Part shown: one piece after another, positions 8,942 to 32,451 of the stretch
How the letters are laid out: each line of letters begins with the position of its first letter
Position numbering within the stretch: position 1 is the stretch's first letter
Assembly: GCF_002854065.1 (NCBI RefSeq)
Contig: NZ_CP024147.1
Source of the DNA: Escherichia coli
GTDB taxonomy: Bacteria; Pseudomonadota; Gammaproteobacteria; Enterobacterales; Enterobacteriaceae
Strand: one strand, 5' to 3'
Length of the DNA stretch: 64,000 nt
Notes under the pieces: model-generated
What the model was told of the DNA's origin: nothing
Database searches by the model: none
Seen by the model: only the letters and a program-made list of their open reading frames with translations
Position numbers and translations under genes: made by a program

Positions 8942-10003
8942 ATGCATTTACGTCATCTGTTTTCATCGCGCCTACATGGTTCATTACTGTTAGGTTCATT
9001 GCTCGTTGCTTCATCATTTAGTACGCAGGCCGCAGAAGAAATGCTGCGTAAAGCGGTAGGTAAAGGTGCCTACGAAATGGCTTATAGCCAGCAGGAGAAC
9101 GCGCTGTGGCTTGCTACTTCGCAAAGCCGCAAACTGGATAAAGGTGGCGTAGTTTATCGTCTCGATCCAGTCACTCTGGAAGTGACTCAGGCGATCCATA
9201 ACGATCTCAAGCCGTTTGGCGCTACCATTAACAACGCTACTCAAACATTGTGGTTTGGTAACACGGTAAATAGCGCGGTTACGGCGATTGATGCCAAAAC
9301 GGGAGCGGTGAAAGGGCGCCTGGTGCTGGATGATCGTAAGCGTACGGAAGAGGTGCGCCCGCTGCAACCGCGTGAGCTGGTCGCAGACGATGCCACAAAC
9401 ACCGTTTACATCAGTGGTATTGGTAAAGAGAGCGTGATTTGGGTCGTTGATGGCGAAAATATCAAACTGAAAACCGCCATCCAGAACACCGGTAAAATGA
9501 GTACCGGTCTGGCGCTGGATAGCAAAGGCAAACGTCTTTACACCACTAACGCTGACGGCGAATTGATTACCATCGACACCGCCGACAATAAAATCCTCAG
9601 CCGTAAAAAGCTGCTGGATGACGGCAAAGAGCACTTCTTTATCAACATCAGCCTTGATACCGCCAGGCAGCGTGCATTTATCACCGATTCTAAAGCGGCA
9701 GAAGTGTTAGTGGTCGATACCCGTAATGGCAATATTCTGGCGAAGGTTGCGGCACCGGAATCACTGGCTGTGCTGTTTAACCCCGCGCGTAATGAAGCCT
9801 ACGTGACGCATCGTCAGGCAGGTAAAGTCAGTGTGATTGACGCGAAAAGCTATAAAGTGGTGAAAACGTTCGATACGCCGACTCATCCGAACAGTCTGGC
9901 TCTTTCTGCCGATGGTAAAACGCTGTATGTCAGTGTGAAACAAAAATCCACTAAACAGCAGGAAGCTACCCAGCCAGACGATGTGATTCGTATAGCGCTG
10001 TAA
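8942..10003 (+). CDS. yncE: secreted beta-propeller protein YncE
   Basis: 353 aa with signal peptide (MHLRHLFSSRLHGSLLLGSLLVASSFSTQA). Confidence 0.9.
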   Translation: MHLRHLFSSRLHGSLLLGSLLVASSFSTQAAEEMLRKAVGKGAYEMAYSQQENALWLATSQSRKLDKGGVVYRLDPVTLEVTQAIHNDLKPFGATINNATQTLWFGNTVNSAVTAIDAKTGAVKGRLVLDDRKRTEEVRPLQPRELVADDATNTVYISGIGKESVIWVVDGENIKLKTAIQNTGKMSTGLALDSKGKRLYTTNADGELITIDTADNKILSRKKLLDDGKEHFFINISLDTARQRAFITDSKAAEVLVVDTRNGNILAKVAAPESLAVLFNPARNEAYVTHRQAGKVSVIDAKSYKVVKTFDTPTHPNSLALSADGKTLYVSVKQKSTKQQEATQPDDVIRIAL

Positions 10004-10125: not shown

Positions 10126-11625
10126 TTAACTCGCCGTTTCAGGCTTAAATGCAATATCCTGTTTTTCTTTATCTACTTCGACTACGGGCGCAGTGCTGTG
10201 AATTTCAGCAACGCGTTTGCGCACACCAAACCAGCCTATAACCAGCAGAATACCGATAATCGGCAGCGCCGCGATAGTATAAGTCCCGTTCGGGTAATCG
10301 AACGCCATCAGCACAAGGACACTCAGTAAAAACAGTAATGTCAGCCAGGAAGTGAAGGGCGCGCCAGGCAGTTTAAAACTGACATCCGCTGCTTTGCCTT
10401 CTTTAATCGCTTTACGCAGGCGCATCTGGCACACGATGATAAACGCCCATGAAGCGATGATTCCCAGCGACGCGAAGTTCAACACAATCTCAAATACGCG
10501 CGACGGCACCAGATAGTTGAGGAATACGCCGACGACATACACAACCAGTGTCGCCAGAATCCCGGCATACGGCACATGCTGACGACTCATTTTCGCCATA
10601 AAACTCGGTGCGGAACCGCCCATCGCCATTGAGCGCAGAATACGTCCGGTGCAGTACAGACCTGAATTCAGGCTGGAGAGGGCAGCGGTCAGCACCACAA
10701 TGTTCATAATGCTGCCGATATATGGCACACCCAGTTTAGAGAAAAACGTCACGAACGGACTTTGCCCCGCCTGATACGCGCTCCACGGCAATAACATAAC
10801 CAGCAACACCACGGAGCCGACGTAAAACAGGCCAATACGCCAAATCACACTGTTAATCGCTTTAGGCACCATGGTCTGCGGATCTTTACATTCTCCGGCA
10901 GCTGTACCCACCATTTCAATGGAGGCAAAAGCAAACACTACGCCCTGAATCAACACCAGCGCAGGCAGCAAACCGTGGGGGAAGAAGCCGCCATTATCGG
11001 TGATTAAATGAAAGCCAGTGGTGTTGCCATCCAGCGGCTGACCACTACCGAGGAACACCGTACCCACGACCAAAAAGGTCACAATGGCGAGCACTTTAAT
11101 AAGCGCAAACCAGAACTCCATCTCGGCGAACCATTTCACGCCGATCATATTCATGGTGCCAACGATGGTAAGTGCAGCGAGCGCAAAGACCCACTGCGGC
11201 ACGCCGCCAAACGCACCCCAGTAATGCATATACAGAGCGACGGCGGTAATATCAACAATCCCGGTCATCGCCCAGTTGATGAAGTACATCCAACCGGCAA
11301 CATAAGCGGCTTTCTCACCCAGAAACTCACGGGCATAGGAGACAAAGCTGCCACTGGAAGGGCGATGCAATACCAGCTCACCCAACGCGCGCAGAATAAA
11401 AAACGAAAACAGGCCGCAGATTAAATAGACCAGTGCCAGCGCCGGCCCCGCCATTTGCAGTCGGGCTCCCGCGCCTAAAAACAAACCAGTACCAATCGCA
11501 CCGCCAATGGCGATCATCTGCACCTGACGATTGCCCATTGCTTTGTGATATCCCTCTTCGTGGGCATTAAGCCAGCGGCGTTTCGCAGCGTGTTGCTCTG
11601 AAGTGTCGGTGTTGTGTTTACTCAT
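10126..11625 (-). CDS. ansP: L-asparagine permease (APC family)
   Basis: Start MSKHNTDTSEQHAAKRRWLN; 499 aa; 12-TM amino acid permease. Confidence 0.9.
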   Translation of the reverse strand: MSKHNTDTSEQHAAKRRWLNAHEEGYHKAMGNRQVQMIAIGGAIGTGLFLGAGARLQMAGPALALVYLICGLFSFFILRALGELVLHRPSSGSFVSYAREFLGEKAAYVAGWMYFINWAMTGIVDITAVALYMHYWGAFGGVPQWVFALAALTIVGTMNMIGVKWFAEMEFWFALIKVLAIVTFLVVGTVFLGSGQPLDGNTTGFHLITDNGGFFPHGLLPALVLIQGVVFAFASIEMVGTAAGECKDPQTMVPKAINSVIWRIGLFYVGSVVLLVMLLPWSAYQAGQSPFVTFFSKLGVPYIGSIMNIVVLTAALSSLNSGLYCTGRILRSMAMGGSAPSFMAKMSRQHVPYAGILATLVVYVVGVFLNYLVPSRVFEIVLNFASLGIIASWAFIIVCQMRLRKAIKEGKAADVSFKLPGAPFTSWLTLLFLLSVLVLMAFDYPNGTYTIAALPIIGILLVIGWFGVRKRVAEIHSTAPVVEVDKEKQDIAFKPETAS

Positions 11626-12599
11626 TGCGCTCCCTGATTGCTTTAATGAAAAAAGTCTTTTATGTCGCCATGAACAATGTTTATTCATCCTGGCGATGAC
11701 AAGATTCACCATTATTCTTTATGGGTATAACTGTCGGCGCAGAATCCTACCTTTTATCGTGTAACGATGCAAAATAATCCCACTATAAATGTGAGGGGAT
11801 AAAGGCAGCTGGCGACAAAATAGCAACCTGATGAAATTATGACGGAAACAACCACTATTGGTTCGATGATACTCGACTGTCGCCGACTCTTTAGCCAATC
11901 GTTTGTCGCTCTGAGCGCAAGTGGTTGCAGTGGACACTGGTGTGGTTGGTTTTCGCTGATTATCATTGAATAGTGAGGGACCAGCGCATGAGTGGTTTCA
12001 GGGGTAATACGCCAAATACCAATACAATTGCTGATTAGAAATGCCAGTTGTCGAGGTCACAGAAAGTGCAAAAAATGTAAGAGTGATATCGGGTGACAAT
12101 TGTGCTATTGCCCAGCAGAAATTTTTTAAATTAGTACTGTTCCAGGGGCATTACAAACCTTAAAACATTACTTCAATATAATTAATGTGTATATCATTCT
12201 TGATATTAATTTATGAAGTGAATTTGATATATTCCGAATTCTTAATTTACATTACTAATGTATGGGACATAACGTTAAGATGGCTATGTGCAGATTAAGA
12301 TATCAGGGTGGGGCGGTAGCGTTTACAGATATTAATTAATTGATGAGAGCTATGTTATCCGCACAATCATTTACATCAGCTATTGATATTGAAGATAGAT
12401 AAATAAATATGCTGAGAATTAATGTTAAGGAATCGTAATGGGAAACTTTGATAACTTGCTTTGATTTCATTCTCTATGAAGATGATGTCATCAACACTGC
12501 ATAAAGTGGAAATATTGAACATCAAAGAGAACCATATTTAATAAATAATAACAGAGCGTTTGTGTTTATCTGAAAAATATCATTTCCAGGAGGTAGGAT

Positions 12600-13130
12600 A
12601 TGTCATTAAGGAGAATGACATCTGGTGAATTAGCATTGGCCAGATCGATTTTTGAAAATACAATTGATTATAGTAAGGTATGGATCCACAATGAAAAATA
12701 TTTGCCGGGTCAAGGGGAAAGAACAGCGATGACCCCAAACGGGGAAATGTATTATCCTGATGCTGTTTATAGTTCAGATTATTCATCGCAAACAATGCCT
12801 GGTGATCGTGAAACAGTAGCAGGTGCTTCTCACTTGTTTATTCATGAAATGATGCATGTTTGGCAATATCAGAAAGGGTATGCAGTTAAGTTGCGTGGTT
12901 TATTTTCCTGGGCGGCAAATTATCATTACGATCTTAATTTACAGTCAATTTCTTCTTATTCCATGGAACAACAAGCATCTATAGTTGCTGATTATTGGCT
13001 ATTGATTAACTATGGACTGGTGGCTGATTTGGCAAATGTTAACTATGTAGGTGATACAACTGAATCCGTTAACACTCTATCGGAAAAATACAAAAAGGTG
13101 CTTAATTTATTTCCTGCGGGTGTCATATGA
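12600..13130 (+). CDS. HExxH zincin-like protein, DUF4157-like (putative effector/toxin)
   Basis: 176 aa; strong AGGAGGTAGG ribosome-binding site; no signal peptide; motif string IDYSKVWIHNE...ERTAMTPNGEMYYP...HLFIHEMMHVWQYQ resembles my recollection of the DUF4157 consensus (DLSxVRVH...AFTxG...LLAHELxHVxQQ); AT-rich context. Confidence 0.55.
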   Translation: MSLRRMTSGELALARSIFENTIDYSKVWIHNEKYLPGQGERTAMTPNGEMYYPDAVYSSDYSSQTMPGDRETVAGASHLFIHEMMHVWQYQKGYAVKLRGLFSWAANYHYDLNLQSISSYSMEQQASIVADYWLLINYGLVADLANVNYVGDTTESVNTLSEKYKKVLNLFPAGVI

Positions 13131-13483
13131 AGAGATTCTTTTTGTTTTTCTTTTTGTCGGGATGCACTGTTGGTGATTATGTTCGCCCATTGTTACCCGG
13201 TAATGTATATTTACAAGATGGACGGGTTTGTTCAAAACCAGACGATGGAGGTATTATTTCAAATTATATTTTATATGAAGGTAAATATGGCAATGCAATA
13301 AAGCTGAAAAGAGTAACAGGTCAGTTCGACCCCGTATGTATTGACATAAGTGAGCTATCTTCAGATGTTATTTATATCGGGCAATATATGCTCTCTTCCG
13401 GAAGTAAAAAAGAATACTATGGTTTTAGAATAATTAGATCCGGAGTACGTATTTTAAGACTTGATGATAACCATATCAAATAA
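13127..13483 (+). CDS. small lipoprotein, translationally coupled partner (putative immunity/inhibitor)
   Basis: 118 aa; ATGA start/stop overlap with the upstream gene; lipobox FLSGC (signal MKRFFLFFFLSGC). Confidence 0.55.
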   Translation: MKRFFLFFFLSGCTVGDYVRPLLPGNVYLQDGRVCSKPDDGGIISNYILYEGKYGNAIKLKRVTGQFDPVCIDISELSSDVIYIGQYMLSSGSKKEYYGFRIIRSGVRILRLDDNHIK

Positions 13484-13703
13484 CAGATTAAAAATTTTAT
13501 TAGTTTCATTAATGTGCTTTAGGTGAATGTTTTCACCAGGTTAACATGACGGTGCATTCTTCAAGGCATATATGGTTGATAGTATCTTCAGTAGCTCGCA
13601 TAAGTATTGAGATGTTTTACGCCAGTTACGAATATATTGCATATTTTATTCTCTGTAAGATTTCTTATTAGCACTTAGCCATTTCTAGTTAAAAGGATTA
13701 ATT

Positions 13704-15191
13704 ATGAGTTTTGCAGCTACAGATTATCCATCCGGCGCACTAACTGGATCGGGTACACATAACGTGACTTTGAGCGGCAGCGCAGTTCCTGATGGAATGT
13801 TACTGTTTGCAAGCTTAGGGGGTACAGAAACAGTAGGGGAACTATTTACTTATTCTATTAAATTAAAAACTCCTGACATCCTGAACCTGGGCTATGTTTC
13901 CCCCGCCGCAAACCTGCAGCTCAAACCGATGGTGGGCAAAGATCTGTGCGTCCATATCGAACTGGATGGCGGCGGAAAACGTTATATCAGCGGGCTGGTG
14001 ACGGCGGCACGCGTGGCTGGTCATCAAGGACGTTCGGTGGTGTATGAACTGCGGCTCGAACCGTGGTTAAAAATACTGACCCACACTAGTGACTACAAAG
14101 CGTTTCAGAATAAAAACGTGGTGGACATCCTGGATGAGGTACTGGATGAGTATCCCTGGCCAGTGGAAAAACGGCTGGTGGAAAATTATCCGACTCGCGC
14201 CTGGCAGATGCAGTACGGTGAAACAGATTTCGCTTTTATTCAGCGCCTGATGCAGGAGTGGGGTATCTACTGGTGGTTTGAGCACAGCGAGAACAGTCAC
14301 ACGTTAGTGCTGGCTGATGCCATTAATGTCCACAAGGCATGCGCAGATTCGCCGCTGGTGTGTTATTACCAGAAAGGGCTGAAACTGGACAAGGAGTTTA
14401 TCCATACCATCACAGCAAATGAAAGTCTGCGCAGCGGACAGTGGGTGCTGAATGATTTCGACTTTATGAAGCCGCGTTCACTGCTGAAGAGCACCGTGGC
14501 TAATCCGCGTGAAACCGGCCTTGCTGAATATGAGCACTACGAATGGCCGGGAGATTACTTCACAAAGAGTGAAGGTGAAATGCTGACACGCATTCGCATG
14601 GAAGAACAGCGTAGCCCCGGTAGTCGGGTACAGGGCAGCGGCAATATTCGTACCCTGATGACAGGTTTTACCTTCACCCTGGAAAACTATCCGACAGCCG
14701 AAGTGAACCGGGAATATCTGCTGGTACAGACCACGCTATTTATACAGGACAATGCGCAACACAGCGGCCAGGAGCAGCATTTCTCTTACTCAACCAGCTT
14801 TGAACTGCATCCCACCAGCGAAGTTTACCGCCCACAACGAACCCTGAGCAAACCCCACACTAAAGGCCCGCAGAGTGCCATCGTCACCGGCCCGGCAGGG
14901 CAGGAAATCTGGACAGATAAATATGGCCGGGTGAAAGTTCAGTTTGGCTGGGATCGTTACGGTAAGAATGACGAAAACAGCTCCTGCTGGGTCCGTGTCA
15001 GTTATCCGTGGGCTGGTAAAGGATTCGGTGGCATTCAGATCCCGCGTATTGGTCAAGAAGTACTGGTGGATTTCAAAAACGGTGATCCGGATTTACCGAT
15101 AATCGTTGGGCGTACCTACAACCAGGACACCATGCCACCGTGGGGACTACCTGAACGGCGTGTACGACAGCACGGGGCACCTGCTGCGTGA
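13704..15191 (+). pseudogene. vgrG: vgrG, N-terminal portion only (T6SS spike protein), truncated
   Basis: 495 aa ORF containing the VgrG gp27/gp5 signature ([39 protein letters not shown]); the frame ends shortly after this motif, well short of a full-length VgrG. Confidence 0.75.
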
Positions 15192-15298: not shown

Positions 15299-15513
15299 GG
15301 GCACCCCTCCGAAATCTTCACCGTGACACCCCGCCCGGTATCAAATCCGGCCTCTTTCAGCCAGTCGCCCTTAAGGTTCAGGCTGGGGTGTCGTGAGTAG
15401 TACGTGGTCATGTAGGTTTTGCTGTTTATGTGGCGGGCTCTGACATAGCCGACTTTATAGCGTCGCTGTGTTTTGGAAATGGTGACTTCTGGCGTAATAT
15501 CGTGTTCAGCCAT
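15286..15513 (-). pseudogene. SymE-like (AbrB-fold) type I toxin, N-terminal ~76 aa, 3-prime end replaced
   Basis: AGGAG ribosome-binding site plus ATG at 15513; [34 protein letters not shown] aligns with SymE (...[38 protein letters not shown]); after EGC the frame runs antisense into the Rhs/vgrG remnant. Confidence 0.5.
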
Positions 15514-15826
15514 GATTAACTACTCCTGTTAGTTGCTTGTGGTGAGCGGCTGTTACAGGCGGCCACCTGTAGCAGTCGCGTTAAATATCAACGCATTACC
15601 TTCATTACCTGCTTCATCTTCTCCTGCGTGATCGCCATATCCAGAATACGGCAGATCACTTCCTGATCGTCTGCTTTAAGCTCAGGGAAAGATCATCAGA
15701 AGTTCACTTTTTGTACTAAATAATTCGCATTTTATGTTTAAAAATTGAGATATTCCTCATTACCTGAAGCTGTTTTTTATTGCTTATACATGATCAAATA
15801 CTCCTTACATAATTAAGGAGAACAAA

Positions 15827-31350: not shown

Positions 31351-32451
31351 TTAGAACTGATAGGTAATGCCCGTAGCGACGATGTTATCGGTGCGAATAT
31401 CTACGGCACGGGTAAAGTCGCTTTCATCAATCAGGTTGATTTTATAATCAACATAGGTCGACATATTTTTGTTGAAGAAATACGTCGCACCAACGTCGAT
31501 ATACTCAATCATGTCCTGGTCGCCGTAGCGGCCCAGATCTTTGCCTTTCGATTTCAGGTAAGCGAGTGAGGGGCGCAAGCCGAAGTCGAATTGATATTGC
31601 GCCACCACTTCAAAACTTTGTGCTTTGTTAGAAATATAACCATCGCCATAGGTGGTCATGTTTAATGTTTCAGCGTAATTAGCTGCAAAGTAGATGTTGT
31701 TGGCATCATATTTTATACCTGTAGCCCACAGTTCTGCATTCTTACCGGAGGCATTGAGAGGATTAGCAGCGGCTCTTTCCTGCGCATTTGTCCGATCGGA
31801 TTTGGTATATACCGCACCGATACCAAAGCCATCATAAACATAAGTTGAGGAGATACCGAAACCGTCACCGTTGGCACGCGTGTAGTCAGCACCATAAAGA
31901 TGACTGTTGTCAGTACGTTCATTTTTGCCTTGATATTGCGCGGCAAAGTTCAGCCCTTCAATTAAGCCAAAGAAATCGTAGTTGCGATAGGTTGCCACAC
32001 CGGTGGTACGGTATGTCATGAAGACATCTTTCTGACTCCAGGTATCGCCACCAAATTCTGGCAACATATCAGTCCATGAACCAATGTCATAGCCGACACC
32101 GTAGTTACGGCCATAGTCCAGAGAGCCAAATTCACTAATTTTTAAACCAGCATAGGCCAGACGGGTCTTGTTGCCGCGCGAGCCGTTGGCTTCATCGTTA
32201 TAGCCTTTAAAATCATATTCCCAGTGACCAAAACCAATCATTTGATCATTGATTTGCGTTTCTCCTTTAAAGCCGAGACGGGCATAAGTTTTATCACCAT
32301 CGTCACGCTTATCATCAGTAAAATAACGTAGAGCGGTAACCTTGCCATAAAGGTCGAGTTTATTACCATCCTTGTTATAGACTTCGGCAGCGTGTGCTAC
32401 GTTCGCAGCTAACAAACCAGTTACAACCACCGCAACTATTTTTAATTTCAT
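31351..32451 (-). CDS. OmpC/OmpF-family general porin, intact (corresponds to the yddL position)
   Basis: 366 aa; signal peptide [38 protein letters not shown]-terminal ...GITYQF; classical 16-strand porin pattern. Confidence 0.85.

Follow-up and report, generated by a model that had tools for sequence, protein, structure and literature searches.

In the Enterobacteriaceae, xenogeneic promoter regions silenced by H-NS, including those of type VI secretion system (T6SS) clusters, combine a GC content 15-20 points below the genome average with variability between strains and a position upstream of T6SS cargo. Escherichia coli also carries orphan vgrG-rhs islands in which a long leader precedes vgrG, as in the K-12 yncH-rhsE spacer and the cusS-vgrG spacer. 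The former is listed as binding both the sigma-70 (RpoD) holoenzyme and H-NS in genomic systematic evolution of ligands by exponential enrichment (SELEX) (PMC3946193). Occupancy by H-NS in vivo is marked for it in PMC10294691 (Table 1, citing Kahramanoglou 2011), which also reports a weak PhoB chromatin immunoprecipitation (ChIP) peak upstream of rhsE, at the site TATCAGAAAAATGTCATG. A further example of a long non-coding stretch that immediately precedes a vgrG-type transcription unit in E. coli is h3R, the hcp3-vgrG3 spacer of enterohaemorrhagic E. coli (EHEC), which has its own promoter, exerts a negative effect on vgrG3 and is likewise under H-NS control (PMC13141884). Here we analyse a window of 64,000 nt (the whole stretch of DNA, with positions counted from its first letter) from E. 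coli assembly GCF_002854065.1, contig NZ_CP024147.1, and within it the AT-rich gap between ansP and a gene for a protein with a HExxH motif. A preliminary description, made from the letters alone, had presented positions 11950-12599 as a gene-free leader of ~650 bp, typical of horizontally acquired, H-NS-silenced DNA, that might hold the promoter and regulatory region, or a small RNA, for the islet that follows. We find that this stretch, at the RhsE locus of a divergent E. coli lineage, is intergenic DNA of composite make-up and that, as judged by sequence, its closest relative is the orphan vgrG-rhs leader, of which the 5' module alone has been retained.

The gene order in the window is that of the RhsE locus: yncE (8942-10003, plus strand), ansP (10126-11625, minus strand), the gap and then the HExxH gene. 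Measured from the ansP start codon to the HExxH start codon, the gap spans 974 bp (11626-12599) and is the fourth largest between long open reading frames (ORFs) in the window (median 159 bp). It consists of five parts, for which divergence is that between the window's lineage and cassette-bearing E. coli:

11626-11828, minus strand: upstream and promoter region of ansP, chromosomal backbone; 11626-11821 has a counterpart of ~83% identity in 5388 of 5426 complete E. coli genomes (divergence 0.069, GC 0.404).
11829-12090, plus strand: decayed pseudogene of yncG (glutathione S-transferase), recognised by blastn to K-12 yncG and tblastn to YncG (divergence 0.152, 14 indel columns).
12091-12162 (72 bp), no strand: spacer a, backbone DNA that separates the yncG remnant from the islet and diverges fast (divergence 0.214).
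12163-12345 (183 bp), plus strand: conserved module, left end of the islet and 5' part of a ~510-nt orphan vgrG-rhs leader (divergence 0.032, GC 0.284).
12346-12599, plus strand: spacer b, a cassette-specific, hypervariable AT-rich leader (divergence 0.139, 33 indel columns).

The gap is a patchwork of a dead gene remnant, a conserved control-like module and a fast-changing spacer, not a uniform leader. The preliminary description was right that it is unusually long, but the first ~140 bp of its ~650-bp interval belong to the yncG pseudogene; the yncG remnant, the composite nature of the gap, the module common to other vgrG islands and the fact that a long leader is not a property of HExxH genes had all been overlooked.

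The relationship to the orphan islands emerged from a distant blastn search with the interval 11950-12599, which matched 4614 of the 5426 genomes at up to three places each (up to four places per genome in the leader search) and in which only window positions 12178-12325 aligned. Copies that share 74-77% identity with this segment precede vgrG at the rhsE locus and follow cusS; in both places they form the first ~150 nt of a leader of ~510 nt that runs into the vgrG start codon and is 76-100% identical between loci. Leaders occupy just two chromosomal loci, rhsE and cusS, across the 5426 genomes. As in those copies, the shared segment stands at the extreme left edge of the island, where both a block with an inverted repeat and a block running ACGTTAAGAT...GGTAGCGT were found. 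Homology to the other leaders ends at GGTAGCGT, at position 12322 (12322-12325). In place of the distal ~360 nt of the leader, the window has spacer b, an effector-immunity gene pair and a vgrG of another family than that behind the ~510-nt leader (the N-termini differ). Because the module precedes two unrelated vgrG types with different intervening DNA, the pattern suggests a portable unit and not a part of one gene's leader. Alignment of the distal leader to 12326-12599 and 13484-13703 gave scores inside the shuffle range. The proposal that spacer b or c is a displaced distal vgrG leader was rejected on such shuffle-range scores, and a 15/16 match of the ribosome-binding regions was not significant.

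Conservation within the shared segment is confined to two short blocks:

12209-12240 (32 nt), no strand: conserved block 2, 81-91% identity between leader types.
Between the blocks (31-32 nt): linker, 44-50% identity between leader types.
12272-12322 (51 nt), no strand: conserved block 3, an island of 49% GC (ACGTTAAGATGGCTATGTGCAGATTAAGATATCAGGGTGGGGCGGTAGCGT), 82-87% identity to the K-12 and cusS types.
Either side of the two blocks: flanks, ~30% identity between leader types.

Block 3 is 100% identical between the K-12 and cusS types, and its GC content of 0.49 stands inside DNA of 28% GC. Block 2 holds an inverted repeat, GAATTT-N3-AtATTC (12220-12234), which pairs at five of six positions in the window and which in the K-12 and cusS types, as read from the sequence, has two fully matching arms, GAATTT-N3-AAATTC. 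The repeat overlaps TTGATATATT (12224-12233), which agrees with the H-NS nucleation motif TCGATAAATT at 8 of 10 positions, and at 9 of 10 in the K-12 and cusS types. Two blocks set between a decayed linker and decayed flanks have the look of a footprint. Block 3 also contains a heptamer, ATGTGCA (window 12280-12292), present in 1.5 copies in the window and in K-12, in two copies in strain B and GTEN97 and in five in ETEC4079, a variation in copy number that resembles slippage.

The divergence of the window's lineage from E. coli falls ~6-fold at ~12163, and the left edge of the islet is placed there for that reason. The contrast between the module and the two spacers that flank it is significant (Fisher p 2e-7 to 4e-6). 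Low values continue to the right of spacer b, in the HExxH gene (0.029; 0.05 at third codon positions) and in spacer c (0.038), and spacer a is about as diverged as the third codon positions of ansP (0.206). The effector cassette occurs in 229 of the 5426 complete genomes, every time at the ansP locus, and the window-type module in ~787. The earlier suggestion of horizontal acquisition holds from ~12163 rightward, given this sporadic distribution and the step in divergence, but 11950-12162 is backbone. As far as seen, the module is confined to Escherichia. A search of other genera with a strict pattern, probably too strict, and one genome per species found it only in Escherichia sp. E1V33 and in an Escherichia-like metagenome-assembled genome labelled Citrobacter. 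A scan of metagenomes returned 58 true copies, every one of them belonging to the three E. coli types, besides 63 chance matches in GC-rich genes, and a scan of viral sequences returned one match. On one metagenome contig, block 3 from AACGTTAAGATG onward (cusS B-type) is joined leftward to unrelated GC-rich DNA, which points to a chimeric assembly or to a further junction at the module.

Spacer b shows the opposite behaviour to the module. Its diversity within E. coli (0.078) is the highest of all segments, it includes an indel of 27 bp (12526-12552), and homologues were found neither elsewhere in E. coli nor upstream of the HExxH genes of other genera. It closes with AGGAGG (12587-12592), a Shine-Dalgarno sequence set 7 nt ahead of the ATG of the HExxH gene. 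In Citrobacter, Enterobacter and Atlantibacter, the gap in front of the HExxH homologue measures 20-190 bp, or the gene stands directly behind T6SS genes, and similarity to the window is limited to coding sequence; the long leader is not intrinsic to the HExxH gene.

The composition of the interval is as strongly AT-rich as first described. The windowed GC check gives 0.329 for 11950-12599, against a window mean of 0.485 (standard deviation 0.062, 650-bp windows), which places it in the lowest 2% of 650-bp windows; the value is 0.30 for 12100-12599, 44% for the part within the yncG remnant (11950-12090) and 0.52 for ansP. AT-richness is present at 12599, where the block had been said to end, but low GC (~30-37%) continues to ~13911, so that a block of ~2 kb, beginning at ~11881, spans the HExxH and lipoprotein genes and the next spacer. 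The frequency of TpA steps is double that of the whole window (0.100 vs 0.053). The "many A/T tracts" of the preliminary description are loosely borne out, with five homopolymer A or T runs of at least 4 and 12 mixed A/T runs of at least 7. Sites with up to two mismatches to TCGATAAATT number five in the interval, compared with 1.7 in shuffles (p ~0.03), and none has one mismatch or fewer. Elsewhere in the window, 650-bp GC of 0.36 or lower is reached in three further stretches, comparable to the islet in this respect, 1151-2801, 28341-31411 and 58351-59301.

The absence of a credible ORF was also confirmed. The longest stop-free run in 12091-12599 is 53 residues, compared with a mean of 58 in shuffles; across eight strains no ORF of at least 30 residues in the gap stays intact, each being interrupted, deprived of its start or shifted in frame in at least one of them; and Pfam gave a single chance-level match to the gap ORFs (E 0.05, well below cut-off). 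Neither a GC content like that of core genes nor a conserved coding gene across the stretch, the two outcomes that would have counted against the initial description, was found. That the gap encodes an unannotated small protein is accordingly most improbable. The candidates are a 37-residue ORF (12185-12298), a 19-residue ORF from the ATG at 12280 in block 3, which begins MAMCR..YQGGAVA in the window and K-12 types alike, and a 44-residue ORF on the minus strand (12336-12470); in addition, a 39-residue hypothetical protein is annotated in the gap of one strain. However, the first candidate has an internal stop in HD12481 and M3, in two strains the third lacks its start codon or is out of frame, with many of its residues changed, and the ORF of block 3 has no ribosome-binding site at a usable distance, suffers a +1 frameshift in the cusS B-type and lacks its first ATG in HD12481, while the annotated product is a remnant of yncG.

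The HExxH and lipoprotein genes, probably with vgrG, must have their promoter in the gap, since ansP is divergent and yncG is dead; its most plausible place is the islet's own DNA, 12163-12599, to which the published K-12 screens lend indirect support. We consider it moderately probable that the islet is silenced by H-NS, that its promoter lies in or just after the module and that the two blocks control expression at the DNA level and are carried along with vgrG islands. The islet would open with a 183-bp module inherited from the common orphan vgrG-rhs leader, followed by a cassette-specific spacer that ends in a strong ribosome-binding site. Transcription of the effector-immunity(-vgrG) genes would start inside 12163-12599, and H-NS would coat and silence the whole low-GC block of ~2 kb (~11881-13911). 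The blocks at 12209-12240 and 12272-12322 would act as H-NS nucleation, anti-silencer or regulator-binding sites, and, by travelling with vgrG islands, would let dispersed islands respond together. Beside the observed anatomy, homologies, pattern of conservation and lack of coding and RNA-structure signals, we infer where the promoter lies and what the two blocks do, and the binding of H-NS and RNA polymerase would follow from the published data for the K-12 spacer, which is bound by H-NS both in vitro and in vivo (PMC3946193; PMC10294691). The region also resembles other H-NS-silenced regions in its composition, strain variability, location upstream of T6SS cargo and mild enrichment of motif sites. 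It differs from them in its lack of a predicted curvature signal and in that a part of it is the decayed core gene yncG, which is not foreign.

Several results weigh against this reading of the locus. Although the gene layout requires a promoter in the gap, as the preliminary description had proposed for the islet, promoter prediction gave no site above chance. The best site is the following:

12224-12253, plus strand: sigma-70-like site, candidate only (TTGATA-18-TACATT), score 10.1.

In the weight-matrix scan this score equals the mean best score of shuffles (10.1, standard deviation 1.4), a second sigma-70 scan of the gap returned 9 sites compared with 10.1 expected, and the -10 hexamer of the candidate lies in the non-conserved linker and is not kept between leader types. 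The predicted K-12 promoter, TTGACT-17-TATTAC, lies in the distal leader and is absent from the window, and the PhoB site likewise maps to the distal vgrG leader, being conserved in the rhsE-locus and JBE cusS copies, diverged in GTEN97/B-type cusS and absent from the window. As these published K-12 sites fall in the distal leader, the binding data do not map onto the shared module. AA/TT steps show no helical phasing at 10-11 bp, a proxy for curvature (p 0.75). Scans of the gap with 12 regulator consensus strings, a weak negative, found none above shuffles for Fur, Fis, IHF, CRP, LexA, PhoP, RcsAB, ArgR, SlyA, Lrp, OmpR or sigma-54. The conservation of the module itself is open to a second interpretation, because its divergence (0.032) is close to that of HExxH third positions (0.05) and spacer c (0.038) and could come from a more recent shared origin of the islet and not from selection. 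In ~15 complete genomes of the A25 type, block 3 is largely lost from 12274 onward, and spacer b is shortened by 78 bp (12346-12423), through a natural deletion of 150 bp (12274-12423); their effector gene is still annotated as intact. Finally, the variable number of 7-nt repeats disfavours a rigid binding site in block 3.

Some of this evidence would be expected if the module were a functionless relic of an ancestral vgrG leader, or a recombination anchor, and the promoter lay anywhere in the AT-rich DNA. The relic would have persisted while the effector-immunity cassette and another vgrG took the place of the rest, and its apparent conservation would be due to the islet being younger than the backbone or to use of the module in homologous recombination. 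This is the main alternative, and we regard it as possible though unlikely. Besides the low divergence of the neighbouring islet segments, the A25-type deletions and the variable heptamer, it would account for the abrupt end of homology to other leaders at 12322-12325, which resembles a recombination junction, and for a junction with ISEc1 inside the module. In ~550 genomes (AVS0655 type) the whole islet is gone and this element, whose ends read CAGGGAAAGAT..., meets the module precisely at the element's CAGGG (window 12301-12308, 15684-15700), an arrangement that suggests either an adjacent deletion mediated by the insertion sequence (IS) or recombination at a 5-nt microhomology. However, neutral decay should not spare two blocks at 81-91% identity, with a linker at 44-50% between them, in leader types that are otherwise unalignable, and spacer b, which belongs to the same islet, has diverged 4-fold more than the module. 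The ISEc1 junction bears as well on the notion that the module serves a mobile unit as its terminal recognition sequence, such as an attachment site or an IS end. The module does stand exactly at the left boundary of the island in three contexts, and it contains CAGGG, the terminal pentamer of ISEc1, an ISAs1-family element. Yet the likeness to ISEc1 extends over just 5 nt, the far end of the island has no second or inverted copy, the module occupies one place in the 100%-identical genome, no integrase or transposase is associated with it apart from the unrelated ISEc1, and just two chromosomal sites are occupied across the 5426 genomes, which together make a mobile end highly improbable.

A small regulatory RNA, or a structured cis-acting 5' untranslated region (UTR) such as a riboswitch, a thermosensor or a target platform for small RNAs, is scarcely better placed and, in our estimate, very unlikely. 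The long upstream region invites the idea, block 12272-12322 would fall in the 5' UTR if transcription began at the candidate start at ~12260, and the hcp3-vgrG3 spacer of EHEC is reported to act on mRNA and translation (PMC13141884). The small RNA mentioned in the preliminary description nevertheless found no signal in any test. An Rfam scan of 11400-13800 at permissive thresholds gave three chance-level snoRNA or viral matches (E at least 0.5); fold z-scores were -0.12 (plus) and -1.0 (minus) for the module, -0.11 (plus) and -1.21 (minus) for spacer b and 0.03 for the full K-12/cusS-type leader; alignment folds of three to five leader types contained no compensatory pairs, block 3 in particular showing neither fold signal nor covariation; and the gap has no intrinsic terminator on the plus strand. 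A rather improbable variant of DNA-level control is that the two blocks are the operator of a novel regulator, for example an anti-silencer that would co-activate dispersed orphan vgrG islands with the main T6SS, in which case the module would be a portable 'regulatory plug' recombined onto new effector cassettes; a less likely form of it makes the blocks an unstructured RNA target. We retain the reading of an H-NS-silenced islet with its promoter in or just after the module, and regard the region as probably an ordinary xenogeneic AT-rich promoter region of a toxin-immunity islet, in which the two-block module is the one noteworthy, if modest, feature.

In function, h3R is an analogue of the region. 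That spacer lies inside the main T6SS cluster, follows hcp, includes a terminator and has post-transcriptional effects, and it is probably not homologous to the module: O157 genomes have only two leader places in the leader search, which by inference are the cusS and rhsE sites.

Downstream of the gap, the islet comprises the following genes:

12600-13130, plus strand: HExxH gene, a stand-alone zinc metallopeptidase T6SS effector of the Tpe / VgrG2b-C-terminal type, 176 residues, recognised by phmmer to PDB 6H56.
13127-13483, plus strand: lipoprotein gene, probable cognate immunity (Tpi-like), with lipobox LSGC and a 4-nt overlap with the effector stop codon.
13704-15191, plus strand: vgrG, truncated, 495 residues, C-terminus missing (Pfam Phage_GPD, 2e-98, and Phage_base_V).

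A phmmer search links the HExxH protein to the effector domain of Pseudomonas aeruginosa VgrG2b (PDB 6H56, E 2e-20); it fits no Pfam or NCBIfam family. The VgrG2b domain is a periplasm-acting zinc metallopeptidase toxin that is neutralised by PA0261 and has been placed in the Tpe-Tpi family, and enterobacterial homologues of PA0261 are predicted lipoproteins (PMC6899460). The locus shares with that system the HExxH domain match, an adjacent lipoprotein gene and linkage to the T6SS. It differs in that the protein is free-standing and encoded upstream of vgrG, with no C-terminal fusion, and in that the lipoprotein scores 30.7 bits (E 2.8e-7) against NF045617, 'putative T6SS immunity periplasmic lipoprotein', for which the cut-off is 43. 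The two genes are a Tpe/Tpi-type effector-immunity pair with predicted toxicity and immunity, and vgrG is a probable downstream member of their operon. In view of the match to a Tpe-type T6SS effector, the database label of the HExxH gene, 'type IV secretion protein Rhs', is misleading. Homologues of the HExxH protein number 144 across Enterobacterales, and the sampled loci lie within groups of T6SS, vgrG or hcp genes. In Citrobacter farmeri the homologue follows by 20 bp a 326-residue N-terminal vgrG fragment and precedes a full vgrG-dcrB-rhs set, a layout that looks like an intermediate between the VgrG-fused toxin of Pseudomonas and the free-standing one of Escherichia. Fusion of the domain to VgrG in Pseudomonas and its position behind a vgrG fragment in Citrobacter prompted the idea that spacer b is a decayed vgrG, which was rejected after tblastn found nothing.

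The islet of the window is degenerate, its vgrG being truncated and a dcrB-like and an rhs gene, both of which follow the intact vgrG of HD12481, being absent; the effector-immunity pair is intact. In a 100%-identical strain this vgrG is annotated as an incomplete Vgr pseudogene. On its 3' side stand a fragment of a SymE-family toxin (15304-15513) and an ISAs1-family element with an intact transposase. The effector start codon itself lies within a perfect 8-bp inverted repeat, ATGTCATT-AAGGAG-AATGACAT (12600-12621), with a Shine-Dalgarno-like loop and an in-frame ATG at codon 6. This repeat folds no better than shuffles (z = -0.13), and its stem is kept in E. coli variants, with one change in the loop.

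On the ansP side, K-12-type genomes have the order ansP, yncG, yncH and a spacer of ~820 bp, followed by vgrG or an rhsE remnant. The pseudogene in the window is colinear with K-12 yncG in two blastn segments, 11829-11951 (68.8% identity, E 7e-7) and 11977-12035 (76.3%, E 8e-6), and in tblastn it aligns with residues 61-113 and 164-200 of YncG, a match that is scattered over three frames and contains frameshifts and a stop. It is without the N-terminal 60 codons and codons ~114-163, and no full-length intact YncG frame exists at 11829-12090; a 44-residue ORF at 11839-11973 belongs to the remnant and is broken in E. coli strains. Spacer a has no homology to the yncH region of K-12, and it contains the target site of an extra IS1 (12096-12104) in the sister strain E. 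coli CUWW06, whose gap is otherwise 100% identical. The region is 96% identical to the window in Escherichia sp. E1V33, and the ansP genes of the window and of typical E. coli are 96-97% identical. At the 5' end of ansP next to the islet (11326-11625, 300 bp), divergence from cassette-bearing E. coli amounts to 7.8% (0.21 at third positions), compared with just 3-4% from typical E. coli for ansP overall; this flank of the variable island may be an old linked haplotype. A terminator-like hairpin followed by a T-run (CTCACATTTATAGTGGG ATTATTTTGC) occupies 11779-11795 on the minus strand, the ansP strand, ~150 bp upstream of the ansP start and in a segment conserved across nearly all E. coli. From its sequence, it could be a stop for leftward transcription into ansP or a part of the ansP leader.

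For annotation, the gap hides a dead yncG and is followed by a Tpe-type effector mislabelled as an Rhs protein. The module marks a recombination boundary at which alternative cargo islands swap at the RhsE locus, and strains with the A25-type deletion are ready-made natural material on whether it matters. A module of ~150 nt, with two footprint-like blocks, is common to orphan vgrG islands in ~85% of E. coli genomes. If these blocks are regulatory, they would offer a handle on how the silent T6SS cargo islands of E. coli are switched on.

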